A stretch of DNA of 63,059 nucleotides, filler included, from Hausera hauseri (lineage: Eukaryota): NCBI GenBank assembly GCA_046269625.1. It is 13 parts of 13 records of this genome, joined end to end, with 100 filler letters (N's around TTAATTAATTAA, not from the genome) between each part and the next. Parts side by side here need not be neighbours in the genome. Positions count along the whole stretch, not along the records: positions 42,281 to 46,353 come from JBJURY010780092.1; 12 more parts are not named here. One strand, written 5' to 3'. The notes below the pieces were generated by a model that saw only the letters and a program-made list of their open reading frames with translations, did no database searches and was not told where the DNA came from. Below, one piece after another: positions 10,553-62,213 of this stretch (the stretch's first letter is position 1; the number at the start of each line of letters is the position of its first letter). Both the position numbers and the translations under genes were made by a program.

Positions 10553-11431
10553 TCATCTGGTGTGGATTTTCATGTGTTTGTTTAAATTTGACTTATGTCC
10601 AAACCTGCGTCCACAAAGATCACAAGCAAATGCTTTCTGTCCTGTGTGGACTATCATGTGTGTCTTTAGATTACCCTTTTGGTTAAATATTTTTCCACAG
10701 TCTTCACAACTAAATGAGTTCTGTCTTGACTGTTTTTTCTTGATTGAGCCTCCAGTTTTCTTCACTTTTAAACATTCCTCGATAACCAAACAACTTGAAG
10801 ACGTCACTGACTGACTCGTCTTGTGAAATTGTTTCCCATGCTCAGTGAAGCTGCAAGATTTGTTGACAGTGTTTACACCTGACTCAGGAGCTCTGCTCTC
10901 CATCCAGTCTTTGTCACCGTCTTCAGGTTCTGACCCAGAGTCTGATAAGTCTTTTAGCTGAGAGTCAGAGTCCTTCACCTCATCACCTTCATCATCCTCA
11001 CTGACTTCAGTCTCTGAAGAGCTGCAATCATCTCCATAAGTATTTAGATCTGGGTTCCTGGTAGTTTCTCCTTCTCCACAGTCCTCTCCACCAGTTGCTG
11101 ATTTCATCTGGTCAGCTGAGCTGCTGGTTGGAAGATCTTCCTCTTTTACTTGGTGCTGATGAAGCTGTAAAAACAGAGGTTTCTCTTCTTCTTCCTCATT
11201 CTTCCAAGGAACAGCAGTGAATGCAAACCCGGTGTCATCAGTCTCCTTTTTCACACAAAACTGCTCTCCCTCTTGACTGGTCCACAGTTCCTCCTCTTCC
11301 TCCTTTATGTTGAGGGTCTCTGGATCCTGTTGGTCCACACCAAGCATCCGTACTTCAGGAGCTTCTTCTTTAATCAGCACCATCTGCTGAACATCTGCAG
11401 GGACCACTGAAAACATGAACATCAGGCACAA
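10553..11431 (-). CDS. Teleost C2H2 zinc-finger protein (gastrula/oocyte ZF type), last exon with two fingers
   Basis: VPADVQQMVLIKEE...IKEEEEELW acidic region typical of teleost ZF families. CEDC...H...H, TGQKAF linker, CDLC...H...H. Splice acceptor near 11408. Confidence 0.9.
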   Translation of the reverse strand: MCLMFMFSVVPADVQQMVLIKEEAPEVRMLGVDQQDPETLNIKEEEEELWTSQEGEQFCVKKETDDTGFAFTAVPWKNEEEEEKPLFLQLHQHQVKEEDLPTSSSADQMKSATGGEDCGEGETTRNPDLNTYGDDCSSSETEVSEDDEGDEVKDSDSQLKDLSDSGSEPEDGDKDWMESRAPESGVNTVNKSCSFTEHGKQFHKTSQSVTSSSCLVIEECLKVKKTGGSIKKKQSRQNSFSCEDCGKIFNQKGNLKTHMIVHTGQKAFACDLCGRRFGHKSNLNKHMKIHTR

Positions 11432-17907: not shown

Positions 17908-20820
17908 TCGTAGACAGGCCGTAGAAGCCGAATTTCTTGAACTAGAACGCTCCGGCATTGTACGCCGTTCCAAATCTCCTTGGTCGTCAACTTTACACGT
18001 TGTACAAAAAATGACGGTACTTTTAGACCAGGCGGTGACTACTGATAATTGAACGACTTGACCATCTTGGATGCGTACCCTCTGCCACTCATCAAGGACA
18101 TCCTGCATCGCCTTAATTCAACTACCATTTATTTGACCATCGATTTGGCCTTTACGAGTACCTGTTTATGCTTTTCGATTTGCAAAATGCCGCACAGATT
18201 TCTCAGTGACACATTGATTCGATTCTCTTAGATATCTCGTTTCCGCACCCTTACATTGATGATATTCTGATCGTTTCGTCTTCGGCCAAACAACACGAGG
18301 AACAACTTTGTGTTATATTTCAACACCTTCACCACCACAATCTCCAAGTCAATTTTGACAAATGCCATTTCTTCAAAAAACGCATCAACTTTTTGGGCCA
18401 CGTTATTTCACCAGATGGTCACTTTCCCCAACCAAACCGAGTTGAAGCCCTTAAGAATATCCAGTTACCACGTACGACCACCGAAATGCGAAGCTTCCTC
18501 AGTACACTACACTTTGCACATAAATATGTACCATACTGCTCCGAATTGACTGCACCATTTGCACACTTAAGTGGCGGCAAAACATCAGCCAATTCAGTGG
18601 ACACCTGCATTGGTTGACAAGTTTGATAAGCTACGCGAACGAATTAAGACCATCGATATTCTCGCTTTCCCCAAGCCTGACGCGGAACTCATCCTTGCAA
18701 CAGACGCTTCAGCCACGGCAGTAGGTTCTGTGATTCACCAAATCCACAAAAGAGAAAATCAACCGCTAGAATTTTTCTCTCACAAACTAACATCCCCTGA
18801 AACCAGATATTCAACGTTCGATCGAGAATTATTGGCCATCGTCCTTGCTTTAAAGCATTTCTCCCACCTACTTATCGCTCGCCATTTTACTATACAGACC
18901 GATCAGAAGCCCTTACTTAACATCATGGCTATGAAGCGTCCTTCTGCACGCCAAGAACGACAGATATCATACTTGTCGACATTTAATTTCAATATAAAAC
19001 ATTAACGGGGTTAATAATTTGGTTGCCGATTTTTTATCTAAATCGGTTAGTTCGATTAATTTTCACCAATATTTACTCAAGCACAACTTCAACAGAACCA
19101 GCCACCTCAGCACATGCTTAATTCTTTCAAGTCTTGCACAATTGTTGACGGTGTGGCTTTAGACACTTCAAAACCAGGTCATTCCTTAATAATCTTTGCA
19201 CCACCGTTGCAAAGGCAAGCATTTAATAGTGTACATTCGCTACAGCACCGTGATGCTAAAGCCACTTTTCGTTTATTCCACCGACAAGTAGTTTTGCCGT
19301 CAATGCGTTCTGATGTGCAGGCATGCGTTAAGGAGTATCTGGCTTGCCAAAAGTGTAAAAAAACTACGCATTTAAAGCCACCATTATTCCACTTTCCCTG
19401 CACATCGCGTTTTGAATCCATGCATGTTTACATTGTCGGCCCTCTTCCTCCAGACAACGGCCATCAATTCATTCTCACCATCATGGACCGTTCCTCGCGA
19501 TGGTCAGAAGCCATCCCTCTGCGGCGAACAAATATCGACATTATAGCTGACGTTTTCATTCGTACATGGTTTAGCAGGTTTGGATCACCTCATTTCATCA
19601 TCACGGATTAGGGTCCACAGTTTGAATCCAACCTGTTCAAATTCCCTGTTAACCGATTGGGGATCCACCACATACATACTGCGCCTTATCACCCCCAATG
19701 GAATTGCTTTTTAGAACGTTTCCACCGAACATTGAAAACGTCACTAAGATTTCTTGCAGAGTCCAACAATGGTTGGACAAATCTTCTTCCTTTTGTTCTG
19801 CTTGGCTGGTGGAACCCTTCGTCTACTTCTACAGAATGCTCACCTACTGAAGCCTTATTCGGAGCTCCTGTGCAATCATTATTCGAACTAACTGACCTAG
19901 ACGACACTCGTAAAGATAAAACTATATGGGCGGCGCAAAATCGCTTTGTTACGGTCAGCAAAGATTCGTTCTGCGGGGTACTTCATAAAGGCAAAACATA
20001 TTTACCCAAAGATTTCTATTCAGCAAAATTTGTATGGCTAAAGAATCAAACGCCGTGCGGCTTCCAACAGCGGTATCTGGGGCCATATAAACTGATATAG
20101 CTGCATTCACATAATGCTATTATCTCTAAAGACGGCAACGAACTTACAGTACATATTACCAACTTAAAGCCCACCTTCTTTGTCGACGACACTTCACCAA
20201 TCGACACGTCAATCTCTTTTCTCACTCCTACATTTCCTGCTGTTCCTTTATCTGTTGATACACCAGTTTCACCTCCTCCTTCTGCTCCTAGTTCTGCTTC
20301 ATCATTTTCCACACCTTCTACTTCTATTCCTATCTCTCTTCCTTTCTCTACCACTCCCTCTGTCTTATTTTCTACTTCTACTCTTTAGCCTAACACAATT
20401 CCAATTTCTACTTCAATTTTCGTCTCTTCTTCTTCATCCGCAAGTTTATCTTTTGTCACTCCTTCGTCTTCCAACACTCTCTTGAATACCTTTAACCATC
20501 CGTTTCCAACAATCTCTCTCCCTCCTTCACCTTCTTCTTCTCTTCATTCTGACTCGTCTTCGCACGACACAATACTCACAACAAAATGTGACAATTTTTC
20601 CTCAACTTAAAACTCTGAAAGCAAACACACCGCATAAAGACAAAACACGCAGAGTCACCTTTAGCATGTATAGCAGGGAAAAATCAGTAGAAAGCACCCA
20701 ACGTCTTGTTCACACTAAGACCAGCTGACACAGACACTTTTTTGTTTGGCGAATTTTTTCTTTCTGCCTATTTTACTCTTTATAGTTTTACCCTTGTTAC
20801 GGGGGGGTGATATGGTGGCC
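17908..20820 (+). mobile_element. Degenerate Gypsy element (RT, RNase H, integrase, S/T/P-rich tail, PPT), related to the element at 32331-37892
   Basis: SKSPWSS.LH.V, DAYPLP, YIDDIL, TDASATAVG, YSTFDRELLA, IVGPLP, HTAPYHPQ, ERFHRTLK. PPT G-run at 20801-20807. Confidence 0.93.
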
Positions 20821-30370: not shown

Positions 30371-32612
30371 AATTTAAAACGCTACAATGATACTTATTAA
30401 TGACATCTATTACAGTGACACTGTACGACAATGACGTTTAGTAATTATATATTGCAACTTCGAGAATAAAATACATAGTAAGTTTTAATTGTATTTTTAG
30501 ATTTAAAATGCAGTCTGAATAGCCTCAGTCAATGAGAAGGGAAAGAAATGTTTACTTTCATCTAGATATATTATTATCTTTCTTACATTAGATGAATCAC
30601 GTGGACGGTTAGAGAAAACCAAATATTGATAAAATACTGTTAATTATGTAAATACCATAGACATACTATATGTGACGTGAGCTCCGCAAATTCTGTTCCA
30701 TGATGCACGATACATGTTAATCTTCATTGCACATAATTAATAGAAATAATAATCACTTTTATTCTGAAAAGAACCAGTGGCGAGTTTTACATTTTAGATT
30801 AGTATCTTCTGTTAGCCTTTTCAGAAGAAATGTTGTTGAATTTTAACCTGTAAATATACATTACGTTTACACTTTTATTTACGAACCTTAGTATAAAAAT
30901 GCTTGATATTTTTTTTAGGGTTTGCATTTGTGGTTACTCTTATCTGAAGAATCTACTATTACTACTGGGACTGTGAGACTTGAGATCGCTTCTCGATCTC
31001 GTCAGGGACAGGAACCGACATACTGGGCAAGATCTTCCAACACCTCCTCGTGGTACATCCTGGAAACGGAAGCAATTCTGGCCAATGATGGAAAGATCGC
31101 CCACAATCCCCAAGTTGAGAAGTGGATCACTACTAGGAGGCAAAGCATCGCTCTAAAGCCTGGAGGACCCCTACCTTTATACTGTCCTTAGTTGACCTTC
31201 TATCTCAGAAGGGCGTGAGTAAAAGACAGCATAACCACTACCATGCATAATCTTCATACCATTCTTAGCCAAAGTGCTACGATCTTCCATGCGAATGAAA
31301 TAATCAGTATCACCTCTTTACGTGCAGTCTCTAACGTGTACAAAATATTATTTAAAATATTTTAAAGAAAGTAATGTCCATTTACGCTAAAAGGCAGAAG
31401 TATTGGTGAATGTGGAGTTAATGTCCACAATTTTATGCGAACCATAGTGAGTCAATTAAATAAGAGAAAATAAGAAAAAAAATAAGAGACATTTTCAGAG
31501 TTGTTCGATTTACGCCTAAGAGCATTTAAAGAAGCCAGTGTCTACGTTTGGTATTGATTAATGGCACAAAACGGTGTTATGTCGTTAGCATAACACCAGA
31601 CTTTCTTTGAACAAACTGTGAATTTGTTTGCATGTTAATAGTTTTGTTTTCCCTCCACTAACGGCCGCTATCCAGGACAAAATTCTAGGACGAATCTACC
31701 CCCAGGGCAGAAATGTAAACAGGCAATACTGCCTATTTCTAAACCCTGGTTAAATAAAGATCTTCTCTTATATTATCTCATCTTATCCTATTATAGTCCC
31801 CTTGACCATTTTAAAATATGTATGAATCATCATCTATAAAGCAGGAAATTTTGTCCAGCTCTCGACTTTACATAAGGAACACATGTCAGTTGTTCATTTA
31901 TCATTATACAACATATTATTACTGTTCGATTTTGTGAAGGTTAACCAGATAATGCCAATATGCCTGTATTAACTGTAATTATGTTACAATTGTAATCTTG
32001 CAACGAGTTTTAGATCATGTTAGCTATTGAAACGTTAGTTTGATAAGACAATTGTTAATTTTTACAGTATATATTTAGAAAGGTAAGTTGGAATTATTTT
32101 TCCTTGTTTCATTTTTATTGGTAATATGCAATCTGCCATTTGAAAATATTCGTAAAAATATAACAAACACAACAAATAAGAAGGTGGTTTTCATGACTGA
32201 CGATACAGATTGCAGGTCATTAGTTTTATANNNNNNNNNNNNNNNNNNNNNNNNNNNNNNNNNNNNNNNNNNNNTTAATTAATTAANNNNNNNNNNNNNN
32301 NNNNNNNNNNNNNNNNNNNNNNNNNNNNNNACTGACGAGAAAAAGGTAACCAGTATTTTAGACGTTTTCTTGAGATTATCAGAATCTAATATTCTTGGCT
32401 CGAAACCAGGTGACGAGAAATCAAACGGCCAAAGAAATACCCTTTATATTGGAATTAACGCCAAGAAATATCATTCAAAAGTAACGCTAGCAATAAGCAA
32501 AAATTCGAATTTTAAAATCCCGACACTAACGGGCAGGAATTGTTCGATTCCGACTTCGATGGTTAGTTTCTCGGTTGGATGGACCGGGCACCACTTTGCC
32601 GGGAGCCTGGCG

Positions 32613-33956
32613 ATGCCTCCACCCTACGTGCCACAATATTCCCCTGGCGTTTTGGACAATTTCATCCAACTCGTTTTCTTTTTTCAAAATCAGCAGATAC
32701 ACAAATGTCATGAAAGTTATACAGCCACGGTCGAAAACTTGTCTGATATGTTGGCACACCATACCAAATTTACCAATTTCCGCCTCTCTTATAATGGTAT
32801 CATTCTCCAGCCATTCGAAATCCTTGCACCGTATATTTCTAGATCGTCCACTCTTCCTCTAACTATCCATATTCGTCTGCTCGGCGGGTCTGACCCGAAA
32901 GCCTCGCCTAAAGACCAACAAGTTTTCGCCGACGTTCCCACTATTAGCGTATCTATAAATTCCGATCCACCACCGTCATCTACCCTCAACTTACCTTGCG
33001 TATAATACTTTGCTGACAAACAACATTCCAGACGAACATGGCTGGAATTTCATGCTTTATGGCTAAAATCCAACAACATCACTGACACTTTTCTTAAGGC
33101 AAATAGCCTTCTTATTCTCCTGCCACCACACATAAAATCGCAGCTTTCCAACTTGTCAGAAGTCTTTCAAAGCAGCGTTCCATACAATTCTCTCTTCAAT
33201 TCAGTCTTAAAAATCACGGAGCCGTCTTTGGATAATATCATCCACAAGTATTTTAATGATAACACTAGGAAATTTAAAACCTTCCGAGTTTCTTCAGACC
33301 GCATTAACTCAGTTGAGCACTTTGGGTGTCAACCAGACAAATAACGCTGATTTACTACGCAGATACTTTCTGCAGTCTCTACCAAGAGACATTCGTGCAC
33401 TCCTCACAATAGTCGAGGATTCAGAGACACTACAAAAGCTGGCACAATTAGCTGATAAAAGTCACGAAATACTACATTCACAATCACCACCATTAGTTGC
33501 CGCTATGCTACAAATGGCAACGACACAACAGATTAACGAAATATCAACTCTGAACAAACAAATAAATTCTTTACGTACCGAAAACGCCAATATATATATT
33601 AGACAATCCCATTACTCACGTCAAAAACAGATGCCCTGACCATGCCGAGGCAGAATCGTTTTGATGCTTGCCATAGCCGCACTTCGTCTCAAAATTTGAG
33701 ACCTGCGAGGTCGCCTGCGCGACCGATGGTGTGTTACTATTACACCAAATTCAAAAGAAATACTAATAAATGCTGCTTAGGATGTAGGATTTATGAGCCT
33801 AGTTTCAGACGACCTGACATCGTCTGTACATACCACAATAAATTTAACACCAAAGCGCACAACTGCATTGCGGGTTGCACCTTCATCGGCCATTTCAATT
33901 CCTCACAGCCTACTCCTTCCAACAATTTAAATCCTGTAGCTTCAAAAAACGGTTAA
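32613..33956 (+). pseudogene. Gypsy (CsRN1-type) gag with an N-terminal ubiquitin-like domain and two CHCC-type knuckles
   Basis: UBL at 32661-32888 ends IRLLGG. One in-frame TAA (33003-33005) is followed by the gag core in the same frame, then LKPSEFL...LLRRYFLQSLP...LAQLADK after a frameshift. Knuckles CYYY...C...C and CTYH...C...C. Confidence 0.85.
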
Positions 33957-33959
33957 AGC

Positions 33960-36900
33960 CGCCAGATGTTTCGGCGCATGATGGCACAGGTAAATATCTC
34001 CACCGTAACAGCCGTACTAATTCCGTATTTACTCTAAACGCCTTAATAACAACTAAGCCCACTCAATCGATTAATTTTTAATCCACTCTGGAGCAGCAGT
34101 GTCTCTTCTGCCCCTGTCTACCAAAATTAAAACTCTTTCCCCGTCAGCCAAAAAATTATATACAGCTAATGGCCAAGCATTACGTGTGTCCGGCACGTCC
34201 AAAATCTCGTTCATGTTACAGACTTTTCCTGACGTTTTCACCTGGACATTCAACGTAGCCGACACACAGTCACCAATACTTGACTCCGATTTTTTATCTT
34301 TCTACAACCTCCTAGTAGACTGTAGACACAGTAGATTAGTTAAAAACAATCAAGTAGATGCAACTTATACAGATAACTCTCCATTGGTTGCGCATCCTAC
34401 CTCGTTTGTCATGCCTGTACTAAAAACGTCATTACCTAATTTAAATGCAAATATAAATTTTAACAATACTAATTTTGATAATTTTATATTCCCATCAAAT
34501 GGTAACAAAGTAGAAAACGTTGACAAAGACGATTTAGACAGTTCAATATCCACCATATCCAGTCCTGCCATTCATCAACCATCTAATTTACTAACAACGC
34601 CACTTGCCTCATTAAGTCAAGAAATCCAGCAATACATAACTAAGTCCTGCTTCCACACGATCACAAAAGACCCAACTTTTAGACCAACTAGCTCGACATT
34701 CCATCACATCATCACCAAGAATCCTTGGCCCATCAGGCAAAAACTCAGGCCACTATCACCACGCCGTCGACAAGCAGTCCAATCTGAATTTACGTTACTT
34801 GAACAAGCAAGAATAATCCACCGATCGAAGTCACCTTGGGCTTCACCACTTCACGTGGTACCAAAAAAAGATGGTACATTCCGACCATGCGGCGATTATA
34901 GTCAACTTAGTAATGTCACCATCATGGATGCTTACCTTTTACAGTTGATAAAGGACATCTTACATTCCTTGCATAAAACTACAATTTACTCCACTATAGA
35001 TCTAGAAAAAGCCTACCACCAAATACCTGTAGCGCCTAAAGACATTCAAAAAACGGCGATAATAACACCATTTGGCCTCTTAAAATACGCCTTCATGCCG
35101 TTTGGCTTACAGAACGCAGCCCAAACTTTTCAACGGCATATCGATTCTATTCTTTCAGGTCTACCATTCGCTTACCAATATATCGACGATATATTGGTAG
35201 CATCATCTTCACCTAAGCAACACGCTGAACATCTTAATCTCGTTTTTCAACGCCTGCATAACAACAACTTACAGGCTAACTTCGCAAAGTGCACATTATT
35301 TCAAAAAAAAGTCAACTTCCTAGGGCACATCATCACGCCTGACGGTCACAGTCCAGAGCCTGATAGGATTCACCAGTTACAAAATGTCGAACTGCCAAAA
35401 AATACAACTGAGATGCGCAGCTTCCTCGGGACTTTGCATTTTGTTCATAAGTACGTCTCGCACTGCAGCCAGTTAACCGCTCCTTTCGCTCAACTAGGAG
35501 CAGGGCCAAAGAAGAAACCTCTATATTGGACGCCAGAACTTCTAAACCAGTTTGATGAGCTTCGCAATAATCTTAAAACCGTTGAAATCTTGGCTTATCC
35601 AAAACCGGATGCCGATCTCATCCTGACAACCGACTCATCAGCCACAGCCGTCGGAGCGGTTCTCCATCAAATATCTCAAGGAATAAACGAACCACTAGAA
35701 TTCTTTTCACGTAAGCTCCAGCCACAAGAATGCCGTTATTCCACCTTCGATATAGAACTCCTGGCCAGCGTTTTAGATCTTAAACATTTTTTACATTTAC
35801 TTATCGCCCGGTCTTTTACCATCCAAACAGACCACAAGCCCCTCGTTCACGTAATAAACATAAAGCATCCCATACTTCGACAAGAACGTAATATTTCGTA
35901 CTTGTCAACGTTCAATTTTAAAATCTTCCATACTTCTGGCACAGATAATTTAATAGCGGATTTTTTGTCACGATCGGTTAGTCCAATTAGCGTCATGCCT
36001 ATTTTTTCTAAACAACAATTGGTTCAGAATCCGCCTTCTACTGAAATACTTAAACAATATAAATCTGTCCAAATCATTGATGGTGTAGCCATGGACACGG
36101 TGATATCTGGGCACCATCTGCCAATTTTGGCACATTCTTTTCAACAAACAGCATTGAACCATATTTATTCCCTGCATCACCCAAGTCGGAAGGCTGCATT
36201 CCGCCTACTCAAACGTCACGTCACATGGCCATTAATGAGATCCGCCATACAGGGTTGGGTTAGGCAATGTGTGGCTTGCCAAAAATTCAAAGTAGCTAAG
36301 CATCTTAAGCCACCATTATTCTATTTCTAGTGTACGTCCTGTTTCGAATTAGTTCACCTAGATATTGTTGACCCATTACTTTCTGATAATGGCCACCAGT
36401 TCATCTTAACAGTGATGTACCGCGCATCTCGTTGGCCCGAGACTGTTCCCTTGCGCTCCATCAACACTGACTCCATCGCCAATGTTTTCATAAGGGTTTG
36501 AATTAGTCGGTCCAGTTTACCACTTTATATTATTACAGATCAAGGCCCACAGTTTGAATCGAACCTATTCAAATCCTTAGTTAATCGACTGGACATAAAC
36601 CATATTCATAGTACTCCATACCATTCCCAGTCGAACGGCTTATTGAAGCGATTTCACCGAACTCTTAAAATCTCCCTAAAAATTCTAGCCGAAACACATA
36701 CGAACTGGATTAGCATCCTTCCATTCGTATTACTCGGGTGGCGCAACACACCATCTACCACCACCGGTTGCGCACCCGCTGAAGCACTTTTCGGCACCAC
36801 AATTCGTGAACTTTTTAAACTGACCGATTTAGACAACACGCCGACTGATGAAACCATTAGGTCCGCACAAGATCATTTCGTCCGACTAAGTCGAGACTCT

Positions 36901-37264
36901 TTCTGTAAAATAATACACAATGACAAAACATATTTACTGACTCTTTATTTAATCAAAGTTCGTATGGTTAAAAAATCCGTCACCATCTCTATGTCAACCG
37001 CACTATTTAGGACCGTTTAAAATTTTCAACATTACTTCACACACAATTTCAATACTCAAAAACGGCAAAGAACAAAACTTGCACATAACGAACGTAAAAC
37101 CTGCGTTCTCCATTAATGACACACCAGGTTCCTCGGTTGAGTCTGCCTCAACCTTTCTTGACTCCTTCAATTCTTCTCGCAATTTGCCTACACTTCAATC
37201 TGCTACTATAAAATCCGCACCAACTCATAAAGAGATGCTAAATAATATACCGACCAGTTTTTAA
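33960..37264 (+). pseudogene. Gypsy pol (protease, RT, RNase H, integrase), 3' part disrupted
   Basis: Protease (FLI.SGAAVS, frameshifted; TANG). SPWASPL, RPCGDY, IDLEKAYHQ, MPFGL.NAAQTFQR, YIDD. TTDSS, TDHKPL, ADFLSR. H..HH/CVAC, TDQG, RFHRTLK. Confidence 0.95.
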
Positions 37265-37487
37265 CTTGCCCACATGCCTAATAAAGACATAACTTTACCC
37301 CAACCATTTCAACAAGCAGTTAAACAGCACGTCAAACAAAGCAAGACAGTTACCTTCAGTAAATATACCATGGAACAAAATATCGACAAGGTTCAATGTC
37401 GGGTTCGTACAAAAACTGAGTAGATCACGGACACTTTTTTTTCCTTTTTATTTTGCTTTTTGCCGTACGTAATGTCATCTTTGCCAC

Positions 37488-37892
37488 GGGGGGTAATGTG
37501 GCGCCGCGGCTGTAGACGTCACCACAATCCTGGAGATTTATCTGTCACCCAATACCGGTAGATGGGAATGCTCCCCATCGTGGTCCTCTTTGGTCAGTCC
37601 TTAGCCCGTCTAGCTGCCGTTCAGCCAGTGATTTTGTTCCTTCCTTAAACCGACATTTTCTGCAAATGTCAACACACTTCAGTTTACACCGAGAGTACAA
37701 AGCCTTTGTGAAATGAAAGCCCAATCACGAATTAAATTGAATTTTCTGACGAAATTATCCCAGTTTATACGATTGTAAGGATCCGACAAATTGAAAGTAC
37801 CAAATATCAACGGACGACATCTAGATCCGTACAAATTACACAAATTAGTTCGTAAAAATGCCGGCTATGATCATGTGACCGTTAACAAACTC
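37488..37892 (+). mobile_element. Polypurine tract and probable start of the 3' LTR (TG at 37497); LTR end not determinable
   Basis: CTTTGCCAC-GGGGGG-TAA-TGTGGCGCC; the same motif occurs at ~20793-20820 and ~40658-40685. Confidence 0.65.
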
Positions 37893-38119: not shown

Positions 38120-39775
38120 ATGCCAATAACGACTTTCACGCCAAAGGAAAATCAAGGATGCAGTTCATATGTGTATTACACATGTACAGTACACAACCCT
38201 CAGAATTTCCACTATACTATGAGGAGCTATTATGGACACAAATTCAATAGGATTATCTATTATATTTGCCCAGGATGTGAGACTGTATGTGATGGAGAAT
38301 ACATACAGTTTTATGAAGATTACAAACATCATTTGACTGACTTCGCATCAAAGTCAAAGAAGATTATCTTTAATGAACATAAGCCAGTTGCAGCAGCACA
38401 GCCTGCAGTAATACAGCCAGATGCAGCAGTACATCCAGATGCAGGACTAAAACGCTCATCAGGTCCATCAGGCGTAGCGGCTCCATCAAAAAGCCAAAGA
38501 CAGCAATCAGTTAATGATGCAGCATTAAAGAGAAAAGTCCGCAAATATGTCATTGATGCAGCTGGTCAAATAACCATCAAGGAGTAATTGGAGTACACAA
38601 AGGAAGAAACAGAGGGGATTCTTCAGGCCAATATGACTGAACTCAAAGCCCTTAAAGTCGACATGAAGCTGGAGGCCACATACGTCAATGTTGATGGCGA
38701 AGGGTCCAAAAGAACCTTCAAGACAAAAAATAGACCCATTTTTGAAACCACCAATATAGTAAAATGGCTGCATAAATAGCATGCGAATCTGATCCGTGAA
38801 GTCGATGAGAGTCAGAGTAAGAAGAGCGGATGGACTCTGGCAACCATCAAGAGATTGCTTGGGTATGTGCACAGATTCTCCCCCATGCGTGGTAGTATAT
38901 ATATTCAGCTTACGGAATGGATCGCTAATAAAATAGCATGTGTCAATGTCCATAATAATGACAACATGTGTTTCATGTATGCCATTCTATCAAAAATCGT
39001 GCCTAATCAACATAATGCTTCACGAGTTTGGCAATATAAGGATGTGCAGCACAACTGTGACTTCCAATGTATCAAGTTCCCACCATCCATAGATGAAATC
39101 AAAAAATTCGGACGACTCAACAATATATCCATCAATATCTTTGGATTGGATGAGAAGGACAAATTCTATCCCCTACATATATATGATAATGAATTGGAAG
39201 ATCATAGGAATTTGCTCCTACAAGATGATGGTGAAAAGAGGCATTTCATCTGGATAAAGAACTTTGAACGTCTAGACAGATCTCAAATTACAAATCATCA
39301 TGGACAAATAGAAATATGTAAGCAATGCCTGTCTCATTTCAGTGGTGATTCAGCAATGGACAAGGTTGCAGTACACAAGATGTACTGCAACAACAATTAC
39401 TGTGTAAGGCCAGAATTTCCCAATGAAGACTATATTGAATTCAAGGAGTTCGAGAAGAAGATCAAGGTCCTAATAGTTATCTATTGCGATTTGAAACTAT
39501 TCACCGATCAGTTCACAGATGCACTCCCAGTCCACAACATAGCAGCACAACGGCATACCAATATCATGAACTCTAATTATATTGCATGTATGCCAAAGGA
39601 CTGGACAGTGAACCATTTCTAATCAGAAATCCAAGTGCAGCAGCACATTTCATGAAACGACTTGAAGATATGGCTCATAAGCTTGAAAACATGCTTCAGC
39701 AGCATAAAGATACAATAATCATGTCATGGAAACAAGCAGGAGCATGGCGCAAGGCAAAAACATGTTACTTGTGCA
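38120..39775 (+). pseudogene. Polinton protein-primed DNA polymerase B, N-terminal half, truncated at KTCYLC
   Basis: FKTKN, GWTL, RGSIYIQL.EWI...ACVNV.NNDNMCF.YAIL, NISINIFG, HFIWIKNF, VIYCDL (Exo I). In-frame stops and frameshifts. Confidence 0.9.
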
Positions 39776-42280: not shown

Positions 42281-43260
42281 TGCTCTATTGTTGTATTCAA
42301 TTGATTGTCGCTTGTTGTGACAGCTTCTGATACAATTGGTTGGGAATTCAATTGTAGCACTTAATGTGCTTTATCATCCAACTCCGCCAATTTACGCAAC
42401 GCCGTAGATTCTTCAACAACGGTAAGAAGTGCCTTAATTTGTATAAACAACGCCTTTAAGAAATATCGTCGCAGAAGGTCTGAATTATGCTTCCTAGTTA
42501 CACCTAGCGTTTGTAGGTGAGTCAACGACGTACGCAGGAATTCAGAAGGCTTATGTGTTCTCATGGCGTTATCATTAAAGAATCTATGGATTATCGAATC
42601 CATAGACGGTTCGGTAAGTTTTAAGACTGCGTTATAGAGATGTGTACGGGTTGGATTGTTGAAAGAAGTCTAAAATATCGTGAAGAAAGTCTTTACTGTG
42701 TTTGGTAAGAGGCAAAGTAAACTGAGCTTTTGCTGAGGGATCAGTAACGTTGTTAGACTGCAGCCAAAGTTTGTGAAAGCTAAGTTAGGTTTTGCTGGAT
42801 TTTTCGTGATCGATAAAATATTCCGTGACTGAGAAGTGTTTGGCTGGCGGAATGGAAGATGTATAAGAGGTGAAAGTAGATGGCGTGGTTACGGTCGTTG
42901 ATTTTTAGTGAAAAGTGAAAGGTGATGGTTTAGAGGTAGTCTTGTCAGTAGTGTCAATGGTGGGAGAAGAATCCATGCCACCACAAATGAGAATGTGTAC
43001 ATGAATAATGACATAACGAGATGAAGGAACAAAAAGGTGGCGAAAATCGACGTTAATTACAGGTAGGTTGTTGTAAGTGAGGTAAAAATCTGAGATATTA
43101 CCGAAACAGTATATATTGGTGTAAGAAATGTGCGAAAATAGAATATGTTGTATTGAGTGTGAGTAATTGACGATTATTGATGAGTAATAAAAAGGAGAGT
43201 CGGTAGGTCCTAGTGGCTGATGTGGTGATGGAACGGACCATGGCGTGGGACCTACTGACA
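42281..43260 (-). pseudogene. Second Gypsy UBL-gag copy, diverged from 32613-33956
   Basis: FYLTYNN...IHVHILICGG, then EYF...LSFHKLWLQSNNVTD...LTEPSMDSIIHRFFND...KPSEFL...LLRRYFL...LAELDDKAH. Confidence 0.85.
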
Positions 43261-43549
43261 TAGGACAGACGGTCGGATAGTCGTTCACACTGTGACGTAC
43301 CTCAAAATCCGGGATGACGGAATCCCCTCCAAAAACTCTCGGTTGAAGAAATAACTTCAGGGGTAGTGAAAGTATTAGGGGATTATGTGAACAAATATGT
43401 GAATTTTCAAAGTATAGGAACTTTAAGCGACAACCACCTCTGGGGGCTCTGTTTAGACGGGGCGATGTTGTGTCAACGGCAGACATGTTAAGAACAAAAA
43501 AGTAAGAAAAAAACGGGAAATAGGAATGGTTAATAAGAAGTAAATTAAA

Positions 43550-44825
43550 AAATGGTTGCCAGACGAATAGTACGCAATGATAAATCTCACCTCATCGTGT
43601 ATCCGTTTCACCGACGGATATAGAGTGGAACTGTCCATTTCTTTTGATGAAAATAGATATTCATAGAAACACAGTTGTTTATACAGTTGAGCAGCCGGTA
43701 CCATAGGTTTCGTCTCTCCGTCGCCGCAATGTTGACAAATGGTATGGCCATTTCGGTCAACGGGTTTCTTTAATAGAGTCGATAGTGTACCTGGGACAGA
43801 TCTATACTCGTAGTTGCAGTCGTGTTCATTACATACAGATGAATTGTAATACGCCCGAATTAGCCGCCGTTGATCAACTGTTATCTTGTTCATTATGATG
43901 ATTTCCTTCAACTGTATCTTTTTATTGCAAATGGCATTTGAACACTTATGATGTGGGTATCTAACTACAGGATTCGTCAATTGGAATGGTTCTTTACATT
44001 CCGAACAACGTATTTCCAGTTGTTTGTAATTAACGAATTTGTTTACAAAAGATACAACACTAGTGTCGATTCCATCATTTTTATTCTGTATATATTTGAC
44101 GAATTCTGTCGTAACAAGACCGAAACACTCTGCAACAGTGAACGGACTCGTTCCGTCGACGACTTCAATCCGATAACTAACGACGGAATGAAGTTGGCAT
44201 TTCAAATGACATTGAATATCCAACTGTAATTTACTATCTTTAAATTCATTTGGAATATACGCGTGTTTACTGTGTGGATTTGTTGATCCATCATTGCAGA
44301 TTATGTCTTTCACAATGTCATTAGATTTATATAATTTCTCAGACCCCGTATTGTTAACCCTTAAAGCTACTTGCACGTGCAGAAAACTTGATGCATCTGT
44401 GTATTCCTCGGGATTATGACTGAATGACTTTGTAATAATGTAATTATCCTATTTAAGTTTGTTGTTCGTCATGTCTGCAGGAACTGATTTCAGATAAATG
44501 TGTATATAATCTACTAAATCATCTGGGTCCCTCATTGTCCAGAAGCATCGAGACAACTCTTCTGCCAACCTCAATGGCCAATTTGCAACAGCTTCTTCGA
44601 ACTATATCAAGCCCTGTTAATTCTTGTTTATCCGACGATGGACCTTTTCTAAGCACAACCAATGCTGCGTATTTCTTGCTTAAATAAAAAAACTTCTGGG
44701 ACACACCATCGATGTCCAATTGAATACATTTACTCATTTTGTTGACTTCATCTTTGATTTTAGCACCCATCCTCATTACCAGTCCGTAATTGCCATTGTT
44801 ATCAGTTTCAATGTTAATTGAAGTA
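43550..44825 (-). pseudogene. POLA1: C-terminal fragment of DNA polymerase alpha catalytic subunit
   Basis: KIKDEVNK..K.IQLDIDG...KKYAAL...ELTGLDIVRR, YIICNDGS-like segment, C-terminal Zn fingers and LYKQLCFYEYLF. Lacks the catalytic DTD and all upstream sequence; stop and frameshift near 44519. Confidence 0.88.
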
Positions 44826-45748
44826 ACACTTGTTTCAAGGTCGGATTTTGAATCTTTCTGTTGGGAATTATTTTCCTGCAATTTTTTCGGTAAACGATAT
44901 TTCAAATTAACGTCTTTTTTCGATGATTTATACGAATTTATCTTGCACAGTTTACTGGAATGATCATCTCTGAATGTCTCTTCCTTAATGTCCTCTGCAG
45001 ACAGTCGGTATGGTGGACGAATAAGCTTTTGGCAAAAGATATTTTGCATCTCTAGTAGTTTTGTTTTTTCTTCTAATAAACATTTCAATTCTCTTAGTTC
45101 ATCACGGCTGTTTCTGTAAGATGATTTCAATTCCTTCATTTTACCCTTTTCAACATTTATCTGATGAAAATGTCTATTTGATAACAAGTCTACATTCTTC
45201 TCTAGTTCAATTTTTTTCTTGTCGACTTCCAATAAATCTTTGTAGTGAATAACTTGTCGAGATAATTCTTCCTTTCCTTTATCTGTTTCATTTCACACAA
45301 TACATTTAATTTGTGGATTTTATTTCTAGACATGATTAATTCTTTATCCATATCTTTCATTTGACGATTAGACGCATCTAATTTCTCTTTGATTCTGCGT
45401 AACTGCTCCTGGAGTGAATAAATTTCTGAATTATATCTTGATGAGACTCGGAACATCAGCATCTCTACTGTTTGCTTTATTTAGATATTTTTCCTGAATT
45501 TTGTTTTGACTCTGAACGGTTTTTAATTCGACGCATTTTTCATCGAGCTGTCTGCGTATATCGGCATTTTCGCATAACAATTCATTCACTTTCATCTGGC
45601 TAGCTTGTCATAATTTTCTGGTTGGCCCGTTTGACTTCACTGATTTATATATTCTGTTGCAATTATTGTACACCTTTCGACAGTTTACTGTTGATTAGTG
45701 TGACTGTCCTTTTAAAGGTTTTGTCTTTTCTGATTGGTGATTTTTCAT
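44826..45748 (-). pseudogene. Lebercilin (LCA5)-family coiled-coil gene, frameshifted
   Basis: SRYNSEIYSLQEQLRR...ELEKNVDL...LEEKTKLLEMQNIF resembles lebercilin RHNNEITALKERLRK...ELSKNLEL...LKEKERELDIKNIY. Confidence 0.7.
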
Positions 45749-45789
45749 ATTGGTGTAAAATATCTGTTTTAAATCAAAATCTGACATTG

Positions 45790-46353
45790 CTGCCCCATTA
45801 ACGGTTGACGTTTGTAGAATCTTTAATTGAAAATTCGGGTTGCTTAATTCATAAGAGTAATTTATACCAGGAACTAAGAAGGCAGTAAATTGAGGAAAAC
45901 CGTAGACTGCTTTTTACTGAAAAATCCACTGATGGTGCCCAAAGAAAAATTAATATTCTTTATTATATTGCCAGTTGTCATACAATGAATTGAGACAGAA
46001 TCAACTACGTACCGCTAATAACATGCAACTAACTAATTCGTATTCGCAAAAGAAACCCAATGCAGCAAAACTTCGCTTGGAGTTGGAATCAGGTCTTTCC
46101 AGATTGGTTTACTCAAATCAGAAATATCGACCTCGACAACTTTATATATACATGCATCCTCATCAGTTTGAAATATAAACCGTATCTCCTCATTCACAAT
46201 GTTTTCGTATGTAGCTTCAAACGTATTCACCAACGTTCTGAAATCTAGCTTTCTTGTTAAGTTGTAATCAATTTGAGACATATCAAACAAGTAGACGAAA
46301 ACATTTCTTTCGCAGCCTTGCACAACGAAAAGTATTAGACACCGACCGCAATC
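45790..46353 (-). pseudogene. PREP: Prolyl endopeptidase beta-propeller fragment
   Basis: QGCER...LVNTFEATYE.IVNE...F.FQT......YKVV.VD......WKDLIP....LL.WV, then TTG.IIK....LG.I.G, matching recalled PREP sequence. Internal stops. Confidence 0.7.
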
Positions 46354-58594: not shown

Positions 58595-61500
58595 TGCAAT
58601 ATGTATGCATATTGCATATCAACAGAGCTCAGACCGGATACACGTCATCCAATGATGCAAAATTATTACGGGTACATGTTCAATCGCATACGGTTTTTCA
58701 TATGTTGAGAATGTGAGAAAGTATGTAGCATATCTGAATACATGGACTTTTATGAAGCACATAATGCTGATTTATGTGACTTCTGGTCAAAATCCAAAAG
58801 GCCATTTTCAGTCAGAAGATGGATGCCGCACAACCAGTCCAGAAGGCGCAACAAGTTCAGGCTTCAACATCAGTTCAGCGCACTGAATCTCCAGTGCAGC
58901 ACGCTGGATTCGTGGCGTAGCGCGGTGGATCAAAATGAGGCATAGTGGCAGCAATTAATGACCCGCAAAAAGGCAGAGACAGCGAGCAATTTATGCCCCT
59001 GCTTTGAAGAGGAAATTCCGGAGATATAGCATTCCAGCAACGGGGCAAACAACACTCTACGAGTTTCTGGAGTATTCAAAGGAAGAAACCATTAAAATTG
59101 TGCAGAACTTGGCGGAGATGCACGCCCTTAAAGTTAATATCAAACTGGAGGTGACGTTCACCAATACCGATGGCGAGGAAGCAAATATGGCCTTAAAAAC
59201 GAAGAATAGACCCGTATTGCAAGCCACTAATATTTAGGACTGGATCAGTGAAGAATGCATGAAGCTGATCCATGAAGCGGAGGAAAGCCAGAAGAGCAGC
59301 TGGACCCTGGCAACAATCAAAGGACTACTTGTGTTTGTGCACAAGTATTCCGCAATGAGAGGCAGCTCCTACATTCCGCTTCCAGAATGGATTGCGCGGA
59401 AAGAAGCATGCGTCAATGCGAAAAACAGTGACAACATGTGCTTCAAGTACGCGATTTTCGGAAAATTCCTGAGATGAAAAGAAATCTTTCCGTGTAGCAC
59501 CATATACCAACATCCAGCACAATTACGACTTCGAATGCATCAAATATCCACCACACTTAGATAATACCGAAAAGTTTGCTCGGATTAATCAAATGTCCAT
59601 CAAAATCTTTGGAGTGGATGATGCAGATAAAATATTTCCTTCACAGATGTGCAAAACGGAGATGGATGATCACAGGGACTTGCTGCTACTAGACGATGGT
59701 GAAACGAAGCATTTTATTTCGATAAAACATTTTGCGAGACTAATCAAATCGAGATATGCAAGCGATGCCTGCCTCATTTCAGTGACGAATATGCATGGGA
59801 GAAGCACAAACTCTATTGCAATAATAACTATTGCATGAGGGTGGAGTTCCCCAAGGAGGATTACCTCAAATTTAAGGAATTCGAGAAGCAGCTCAAGATG
59901 CCAGTTGTTATATACTGTGACTTTGAAGCTATCCTCAGATCAATCCAGAGTTGCAGCCCAAATGCTCAGAGAAGCGGCACTACAGTATATCAGTATCATG
60001 AGCTGCCATCCTATTGCATGTATGCAAAAAGGCTGGATAAGGAGCCATTCTTGTATACGGGTTCAGATGCAGCACTCCATTTCATGAAACGGCTAGATGT
60101 GAAACACAAGTAAGATCAAAGGCAGCAGCATAAGAATGATATGGTTATGAGAACCAAAGAAAAACGTAAATGGCGCCAGGCAACATGTTACATGTGCAAA
60201 CAGACATTCACTATGGAAAATCACAAAGTTCGGGATCATTGCCAAACGAATGGCATGTATCGCGGCACAGTGCAATAGTTGCAATTTACGCTGCAGGGCA
60301 GTTTCATATGTACTTGTCATATTCCACAACCTCATTGGTTATGACTCCTATTTCATAGTCGGTGTACTTGGCAATATCCCTGGGAATATCGATGTAATAC
60401 CCCACAGTGAAGACAAATATATCAGCTTCACAAAGTATGTGGGACGTACAAGCTACGATTCATCGACAGCTTCCGCTTCATGCCGTCATCGCTGGACAGT
60501 CTCGTCAAGAAACTTCCATCGGACAAACTCAAGGAGACGATGTTTTTTCCTAAAACCTTTAACTTTGTCAAGAGGAAGGGAGGGTTACCATATGACTACG
60601 TAACGTCATGAGAATCACTGGATAAAGAAGCATTACCTCCCAAGGATGGGCTTTTATAACCAGTTAACAGATAGCGATATCAGTGATGCTGACTACCAGC
60701 ATGCACTGAATATCTGGGAGGCATTCCAATGCACGACCATCGGGGAATACAGCGATATATACCTCAGGACAGATGTTCTGCTCACAGACGTGTTCGAGAG
60801 TTTCCGGGATGTCACGCTCAAGAGCCACAAGCTGAACCCGGCCCATTTCTTCACTGCCCCATGCATGAACTAAGCAGAAATCCTGAAATATTTAAAAATA
60901 AGGCTCCAGATCTTGAAGTACAATAACATGATCCTCATGCAGGAGCAAGGCATCAGAGGTGGAATCTGCAAGGCCATTCACCGGTATGGAGGCCAATAAT
61001 AAGTACATGGTAGACTATGATGATTCGAATGAATTATCATATATAGGATATCTGGATGGGCAATGAGTGCCCCATTGCCCTACAATAATTTTCAATGGGT
61101 GAAGCAGCCGGAGGAATTGGATATCAAGTCAATAGATCCCAATGGAGATACGGGATACATACTCGAGGTGGATGTGGAATACCCTCATAGTATCCACAAT
61201 AAACATGAGCAGTTGCCGTTTCTGCCGGAGACCGGTATTCCACCAAATTGGAAGCACAAGCTGCTGTGCCAACTCGGAAACCGGAAGAGAAATGTGGCCC
61301 ATTACATCAACCTCCAACAGGCTCTGAAGAATGAATTCCAAGTCACGAAGATCCATCGTGCCTTCTCCTTCAGCCAGTCCAAATGGCTGGAGCCATACAT
61401 TGCATTCAACACGCAGCTGAGAGCCAATGCCAAAAACGATTTTGAGAAAAATCAGTTCAAACTCTATAACAACTCAGTTTTTGGCAAAACGATGGAAAAT

Positions 61501-62213
61501 ATCCGAAAACGGATCAACATCGAATTTGTATGCGATTGGAAGCGGGAGAAGCAGTTGGTTGCCAAGCCCCACTTCCACAGCAGCATCATATATGGAGAGG
61601 ATCTAGTAAGCATACGTACGCTGAAGACCTGCTTGGAGTTCAACAAGCCCATATATGTTGGCATGACAATACTGGACCTGTCGAAAAAGCTGATGTATGA
61701 ATTCCATTACAACACAATGGTTCTGGCATTCAATGACCTCCAACTCATGTACATGGATACCGATAGTTTCGTCCATCAAATCCATGTAGTGGATCTATTT
61801 GAGGAATTCCACAAAATAGTTAATCATTTCGACACGTCTGATTAACCGAAGGACCATAAGAACTATTCAGTGGCAAATAAGGTCCTAGGAAAATTCAAGG
61901 ACGAAGTCAATGGCAGCATCATAAGATTCGTGGCGCTGCGACCAAAGATGATTCCATTAACTTTGGTGGACAGATTAAGAAGCTGGCCAAAAGAGTGCAA
62001 CGGGCAACACTGGCCAAGATTGGATTCGAGGATTGTATGTTGGTGCTTCGAGAACAATATCATATAATATCAGACATGAAGCGGATTCAGTTTCGTGAAC
62101 ACAAATTTCAATCAGTTGTGCTGCGGAAGAAAAGCCTCGATTGGTTCGATGATAAGAGGCAAATTCAACAAGATAGAATTCGAACTCGACCTCATGGACA
62201 TTATTTGTTGTAA
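58595..62213 (+). pseudogene. Near full-length Polinton pPolB with an endonuclease VII-like insert, disrupted
   Basis: RGSSYIPLP, VIYCDFE, CYMC...VRDHC...YRG...CNL, FHNLIGYD, TDVLL, IRGGIC, GYILEVDVEYP, K.YNNSVFGK, YMDTDS, GKFKDE, FDDKR. AATAAA at ~62263. Confidence 0.93.

Follow-up and report, generated by a model that had tools for sequence, protein, structure and literature searches.

The window, a stretch of 63,059 nucleotides from the Hausera hauseri assembly (GCA_046269625.1), is a pack of 13 stretches. It includes one complete contig (C780092, 4073 bp, positions 42281–46353) whose minus strand carries a copy of a Ty3/Gypsy element, here assigned to family B, in which pieces of host genes are followed by a domain ending in Gly-Gly, a linker, and a broken Gag (Table 1). 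An earlier note on this DNA had described a diverged ubiquitin-like (UBL) N terminus upstream of Gag on a separate contig. Its reading of this part of the sequence is borne out: the quoted residues lie in a minus-strand open frame, 43591–42905, which contains SDFYLTYNNL (from 43093)...VIIHVHILICGG|MDSS; the Gly-Gly said to end at 42977 is found at 42982–42977; and minus-strand translation gives the Ser/Thr linker that was said to follow it. The further claim, that Gag resumes after one in-frame stop, fails. Stops occur at 42907–42905 and at 42787, and roughly five further private indels lie from 42840 to 42640. With two stops and several frameshifts in the first 400 nt of a Gag that runs off the contig end, the window copy is dead.

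Compared with close relatives, the copy also shows small deletions private to it at three sites (near 43200, 43195, and 43105), and therefore its first two strands and helix sit in another frame (LSFLLLINNRQLLTLNTTYSIFAHFLHQY). This bears on the statement that its N terminus is otherwise very different from that of the second UBL-bearing copy, of family A. Intact relatives of the two are indeed ~17% identical, but part of the reported difference is an artifact, because the compared N-terminal half is out-of-frame text in the window copy. Another private indel, near 43550, splits the polymerase frame from the UBL frame; relative L092 reads through at this point. A Pfam search with the domain of the window copy gave no match. 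The copy ends inside Gag, and the order of gag followed by PR-RT-RNaseH-IN is taken from relatives. Other stretches of the window (10553–11431, 38780–39622, and 59473–61845) hold what we take to be a teleost-looking C2H2 zinc-finger gene and Polinton-like DNA polymerase pieces.

Table 1. Retroelement features in the window, by position
Feature	Position	Strand	Remarks
Family C Pol region; UBL-GG|M also present in relatives of this family	17908..20100	+	
Family A element: leader end, UBL, Gag, PR-RT-RNaseH-IN, purine tract, LTR start near 37497	32331..37892	+	
Family A ubiquitin-like domain ending LLGG|SDPK	32649..32888	+	Comparison copy
Gag capsid core, DUF7041-like in relatives	42281..42828	-	Broken by stops and frameshifts, cut by contig end
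Met and Ser/Thr-rich linker	42829..42976	-	Stop at 42907-42905
Gly-Gly then Met, putative cleavage site GG|M	42977..42982	-	
Ubiquitin-like domain, Gypsy family B	42977..43200	-	3' half in frame with GG, 5' half displaced by three private deletions; fold predicted from open-frame relative L096
Family-wide segment, ~30-40 codons ahead of domain	43201..43320	-	Reads open in frame with the domain; conserved ATG absent
Leader cargo: C-terminal piece of DNA polymerase alpha	43456..44448	-	15 decayed copies; Pfam zf-DNA_Pol E 1e-16
Leader cargo: coiled-coil piece joined to DNA polymerase B piece	44519..45292	-	
Leader cargo: prolyl oligopeptidase N-terminal piece	46036..46353	-	Pfam E 3e-12

The domain in Ty3/Gypsy families

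The 80-residue domain, ending in GG|M or GG|S, is found in the outside protein P0001 as well as in three Ty3/Gypsy families (A, B, and C). It has at least 151 matches in its own genome for family A (best 150 of 1271 candidates scored) and at least 150 for family B (best 150 of 2854 candidates scored). Family C, found via the window stretch at 17908, reads ...FRIRGG|MNSS, and P0001 reads ...SRLLGG|MGPK. Identity among the A, B, and P0001 domains is 16–24%. As single sequences, the two window copies give a weak BLASTP match (E 0.001, 23% of 70 aa). Profile alignment of both N termini, proposed as a check in the earlier note, is significant (probability 90.4, E 1.4e-6, 73 gap-free columns at ~17% identity). 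Seven of the 82 columns in a 28-row alignment, again at ~17% identity, are near-invariant: N14, F44, L46, N49, H74, G79, and G80.

UBL presence was mapped on a midpoint-rooted reverse transcriptase (RT) tree of 35 of 36 rows (L266, too short, was dropped), restricted to DUF7041 elements of the same assembly. All 26 rows with a UBL fall on a single branch (100/100), next to seven UBL-less DUF7041 elements; in these CsRN1-like sisters, Gag mostly begins at its own Met. The window copies of families A and B had been taken as independent. Both families fall within the one clade, and therefore the Gypsy UBL is likely to be one ancient capture retained by selection, a single gain being the simplest reading. 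The view of the domain as an old, selected family feature holds up, with families A, B, and C and P0001 all carrying it, purifying selection, and a single RT clade. Outside relatives are very few among the matches listed (P0001, the probably chimeric P0004, and P0007–P0008). In the ENA proteins P0004 and P0008, unrelated genes (DUF5777; a CFAP58 coil) are joined to a Gag from these lineages, through capture or misassembly. Profile matches to SHOC2 and P0002 were rejected as repeat artifacts.

The domain is under purifying selection. Among pairs at least 20% apart, dN/dS is 0.26–0.28 in family A (42 copies) and 0.33–0.36 in family B (58 copies), and shifted frames of the domain give 0.84–1.33. 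The Gly codons of GG vary at third positions, and UBL and Gag share one selected frame. The signal is weak in the window copy's own subfamily, where dN/dS is 0.76 for the UBL versus 0.28 for Gag. Among decayed copies, GG is intact in 38/53 of A, 57/74 of B, and 3/9 of C by automatic family calls, in which a few "B" rows have A-like tails; the broken remainder is consistent with decay after insertion.

By sequence alone, the Gypsy domain is barely ubiquitin-like. Alignment with ubiquitin sets by hhalign gives a probability of 7–8. The best Pfam ubiquitin match of family A has an E of 0.059, in 2 of 14 members, with weak PDB hints; a PDB search with family B gave no match. A tandem PB1/ubiquitin protein (E 2e-4) is among three matches found by the Gypsy profile, one of them spurious. 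Structure prediction supports the expected fold in part. The family B relative L096 models as a β-grasp in one of five models (pLDDT 82.1, pTM 0.68; other four models 58–65), and the prediction is of this relative, not of the frameshifted window copy. The strand order of the model is β-β-α-β-β, and its structure matches include SUMO, FAT10, BAG6, and ISG15 (best Z 9.0, rmsd 2.1 over 70 residues; Foldseek probability 1.0). Of 48,161 chains searched, 27 reach Z ≥ 8, and the top matches are almost all ubiquitin-fold chains. The input alignment contained A, B, and P0001 and no ubiquitin sequence; an alignment of B alone yields a poor model (pLDDT 55). The family B relative is thus predicted to adopt the β-grasp (ubiquitin) fold, with Gly-Gly standing at the end of the last strand.

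A ubiquitin domain in BEL/Pao elements

A Pfam ubiquitin search of the genome (E 1e-19) identifies a ubiquitin domain in BEL/Pao elements of the same assembly, ending GG|S before a DUF1759 Gag; the order is ubiquitin-GG|S, then a helical region, DUF1759, and CCCH fingers. The best 30 DUF1759 loci include two that match the ubiquitin profile and 28 without a match, and most of these 28 with enough upstream sequence have a Met-initiated Gag behind closed frames. This BEL/Pao lineage has ubiquitin-GG|S before Gag independently of the Gypsy families, and the layout is convergent. Identity to host ubiquitin is 49% for L104, 29% for L115, and 20% for ENA protein P0007, which has the same layout; P0008 begins with the LKGG|S tail only. 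L104 keeps the Ile44/Lys48-type segment, and the Gags of L104 and P0007 are 65% identical. The comparison suggests that the L104 line re-captured ubiquitin or that rates are unequal.

Other ubiquitin-related sequences came up as well. L113:179-2620 (-), L123, and L077 are host-like genes built from numerous diverged ubiquitin-like domains in tandem (814 aa in L113). A contig of 56% GC (L072), with a ubiquitin 82% identical to that of the host beside virus-like ORFs, is probably a large DNA virus in the sample.

The coding leader and the putative release of Gag

In both groups, the domain is preceded by a sense-strand, nearly stop-free leader, and no conserved ATG is found at or ahead of the domain. 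The leader holds kilobases of host mRNA pieces, in sense direction, in Gypsy copies and one BEL copy. Counted over 48, 30, and 13 loci selected without regard to open frames, frame breaks per 600 nt number 2.5–3.2 on the leader sense strand and 2.5 in Gag, versus 6.2–7.5 in antisense and shuffled sequence. The DNA upstream of UBL-less sister elements is closed (8.1 frame breaks versus 8.6 shuffled; 8 loci). Of 84 rows examined, 63 loci were usable, and in 32 of them the longest upstream frame is that of the UBL. Host Pfam domains occur in 40/144 sense ORFs and 0/29 antisense ORFs, where one match is to the RT of another element; the scan, which includes loci picked for long frames, covered 144/169 sense and 29/31 antisense ORFs, with about ten others submitted separately.

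We favor, at a probability of roughly 55%, a model in which UBL-GG is a host-cleaved processing tag that frees Gag from a long, variable leader of host cargo, by analogy with cytopathic pestiviruses. Transcription would begin near the 5' end of the LTR, and ribosomes would initiate at an AUG early within the cargo and continue into Gag. A deubiquitinase or UBL protease of the host would then cut after GG, such that the freed Gag starts with Met or Ser, whatever leader precedes it, and the leader-UBL piece would be discarded. In pestiviruses, cellular hydrolases cleave the ubiquitin inserts (PMC8310069, partial text). The residue after GG is Met in 70/138 copies, Ser in 47/138, and Pro in 1/138; Pro at this position blocks cleavage of ubiquitin fusions (PMC9703124, partial text). 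We note that a host enzyme may fail to recognize the Gypsy domain, given its barely ubiquitin-like sequence.

The Met after GG in families B and C could also start Gag directly. This is one form of a reading that we consider very unlikely, in which leader and UBL are translated and Gag is made separately, by internal initiation at that Met or by splicing, or in which the element's own protease makes the cut. GG|M in B, C, and P0001 would suit it, as would the position of the Gag Met in canonical relatives, at a similar distance from the capsid core. However, GG is followed by Ser, with no Met, in family A and in the BEL lineage, and the single selected frame of UBL and Gag argues against separate synthesis. 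To our knowledge, GG|S or GG|M is not a typical retropepsin site, which counts against the element's own protease.

The leader drifts in amino acids while purging stops. Its dN/dS is 0.70–0.90, and stops make up 6/603 shared variants versus 45/1330 singletons (p 0.002; for comparison, 14/686 versus 40/821 in Gag); indels in multiples of three are not enriched among shared ones (7/26 versus 18/106, p 0.27), and these p-values are optimistic because the copies are related. The stop deficit, when anchored on the frame of the UBL, fades over 60–100 codons in the upstream direction, sooner than on the downstream, Gag side, and therefore many cargo junctions may be out of frame. A natural single frame of host domain, UBL, and Gag exists in L092 (466 aa). 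Contig C84435 (L136 and L115) has an open frame of 3454 aa in which host segments (fn3, Ig, EGF, and coiled coil) run into UBL-GG|S and a BEL Gag-protease; the first AUG of this frame lies 387 nt beyond the purine tract.

A frame advantage that is clear only ~60 codons upstream is what would be expected if the UBL stayed on Gag as its N-terminal domain, serving as a folding aid or for membrane/ESCRT or proteasome-shuttle contact, with a start nearby and the GG an inherited flexible hinge. The very low similarity to ubiquitin fits such a role too, and engineered uncleavable ubiquitin-Gag fusions rescue HIV release (PMC9703124, partial text). We nevertheless regard it as unlikely: GG accounts for two of the seven near-invariant columns despite ~17% identity and recurs in BEL lineages 20–49% identical to ubiquitin, a conserved ATG is absent, and the internal UBL of env-bearing elements, which is plausibly uncleaved, has no GG.

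The tail of family B keeps the ubiquitin pattern (IHVHIRIRGG versus LHLVLRLRGG), and the domain is nearly lysine-free, with 0.6 versus about 8 Lys. In an alignment made by eye, Thr/Ser and Leu/Ile occupy the positions of ubiquitin's Ile44 and Lys48. A kept tail with lysine loss fits a cut tag better than a signaling module. These features bear on the proposal that the UBL is itself the active product after cleavage, a free GG-ended modifier or decoy conjugated to, or jamming, the ubiquitin/SUMO silencing machinery, with the open leader a by-product. In its favor, the terminal GG and Arg positions are kept, L104, at 49% identity to host ubiquitin, retains the Ile44/Lys48-type segment, and ubiquitin-related modules occur in Burro elements (PMC6431247, partial text). 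Against this, the Gypsy domain has lost its lysines and hydrophobic patch, the freed piece would drag along hundreds of variable leader residues, and UBL presence goes with an open leader in both superfamilies; we judge a modifier or decoy improbable.

A purine tract and a TG start of the following LTR were identified, and C315496 has a 970-bp repeat pair (89%). The primer site and the LTR 3' end were not located in the element copies examined, a Tyr-like site was seen in two copies, and no tRNA genes were found in 15 loci. Open cargo mosaic is found beyond the 3' purine tract as well, and several contigs have a tandem arrangement; the mosaic probably sits within very long LTRs. On C78880, C25563, C5345, C84435, and C439914, elements stand head-to-tail or with long repeats and share a cargo-filled spacer, at repeat periods of about 5.6–9.8 kb where measured. 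The family A LTR opens with a 30-nt inverted repeat, TGTGGTG...CACCACA (window 37497–37526; L052, L053), after which subfamilies diverge. Cargo pieces include a ubiquitin E1, a HECT ligase, and a Piwi domain (L102:6899-8497 (-), L202:3098-3487 (-), L254:920-1573). The POLA1 piece was considered as a host insertion site, and this was rejected: several of its 15 decayed copies lie directly upstream of the UBL.

Extending the processing-tag model, we tentatively propose, at somewhat less than even odds, that two superfamilies in one host independently evolved the same ubiquitin-fusion trick. A GG-ended UBL would allow host proteases to release Gag from any upstream protein, and 5' ends would be free to accumulate and translate host-gene mosaics (up to ~2,600 residues), making the elements standing exon-shuffling machines; one lineage would have swapped its tag for a fresher copy of host ubiquitin.

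Relation to known systems

In the RT tree, the Gypsy UBL carriers are sister to canonical DUF7041 elements. Like the CsRN1 clade, they have a DUF7041-type Gag with a CHCC motif and the order PR-RT-RH-IN, and close to the end of Gag a slippery AAAAAAC points to a −1 frameshift (PMC2582038, partial text). They differ from CsRN1 in that CHCC is doubled, a UBL and multi-kb coding leader precede Gag, and a tRNA-Trp site near Gag is absent (PMC2582038, partial text). CHCC (CX2HX9CX3C) occurs in two copies each in the Gags of L013, L086, L089, and P0001, with none in the L253 stretch examined, and a tRNA-Trp primer site lies within 700 nt in 1/91 UBL loci versus 7/19 UBL-less loci.

The planarian giant gypsy Burro/GYPSM1 likewise encodes an LTR polyprotein with a ubiquitin/SUMO-like domain and host-like modules, but its UBL is internal, downstream of Gag, whereas that of families A–C stands before Gag (PMC6431247, partial text). 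No Env was seen in families A–C. The assembly also contains Burro-like elements (L114:887-10000, L116:1077-9998, and L117), each with one ORF of ~3000 aa in the order Gag, internal UBL without GG, Monjiviricetes-type fusion protein, then Pol; L114 and L116 do fit the Burro layout.

A natural UBL-GG ahead of a retrotransposon Gag was not found among the literature matches listed, from a collection with few subscription papers and few Repbase/GyDB entries. The word "ubiquitin" is absent from a BEL/Pao review (PMC3118150) and from the available part of the PwRn1/CsRN1 paper (PMC2582038). Already known are mRNA capture by LTR elements (PMC5131818, partial text), the internal UBL of Burro (PMC6431247, partial text), and viral ubiquitin processing signals. 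LTR-mediated retroposition resembles the present case in its template-switch capture of mRNA pieces, multi-gene chimeras, and sense bias; there the cargo replaces internal ORFs, whereas here it precedes a retained gag-pol and appears to be fused to it through a UBL (PMC5131818, partial text). If cleavage occurs, it would explain how kilobases of captured coding sequence are tolerated ahead of gag.

The closest parallel to the processing-tag model is in cytopathic pestiviruses, where, as here, captured ubiquitin-like sequence lies in frame in a polyprotein, often with host mRNA in front (PMC8310069; PMC13517609; partial texts). Hydrolase cleavage gives the next pestivirus protein its exact N terminus, while the cut after GG in the elements is putative (PMC8310069; PMC13517609; partial texts). 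The pestivirus inserts, recent and nearly intact, do not persist for long, and they stand ahead of NS3 in an RNA virus rather than ahead of Gag (PMC8310069; PMC13517609; partial texts). In contrast, the domain in the elements is old and lineage-wide, with a similarity to ubiquitin of at most about 50% (BEL) or near-undetectable (Gypsy). If the model is correct, the elements would offer a natural test of how far the ubiquitin fold can drift yet be cut, and would extend the pestivirus processing-signal principle to a stable, convergent retroelement feature.
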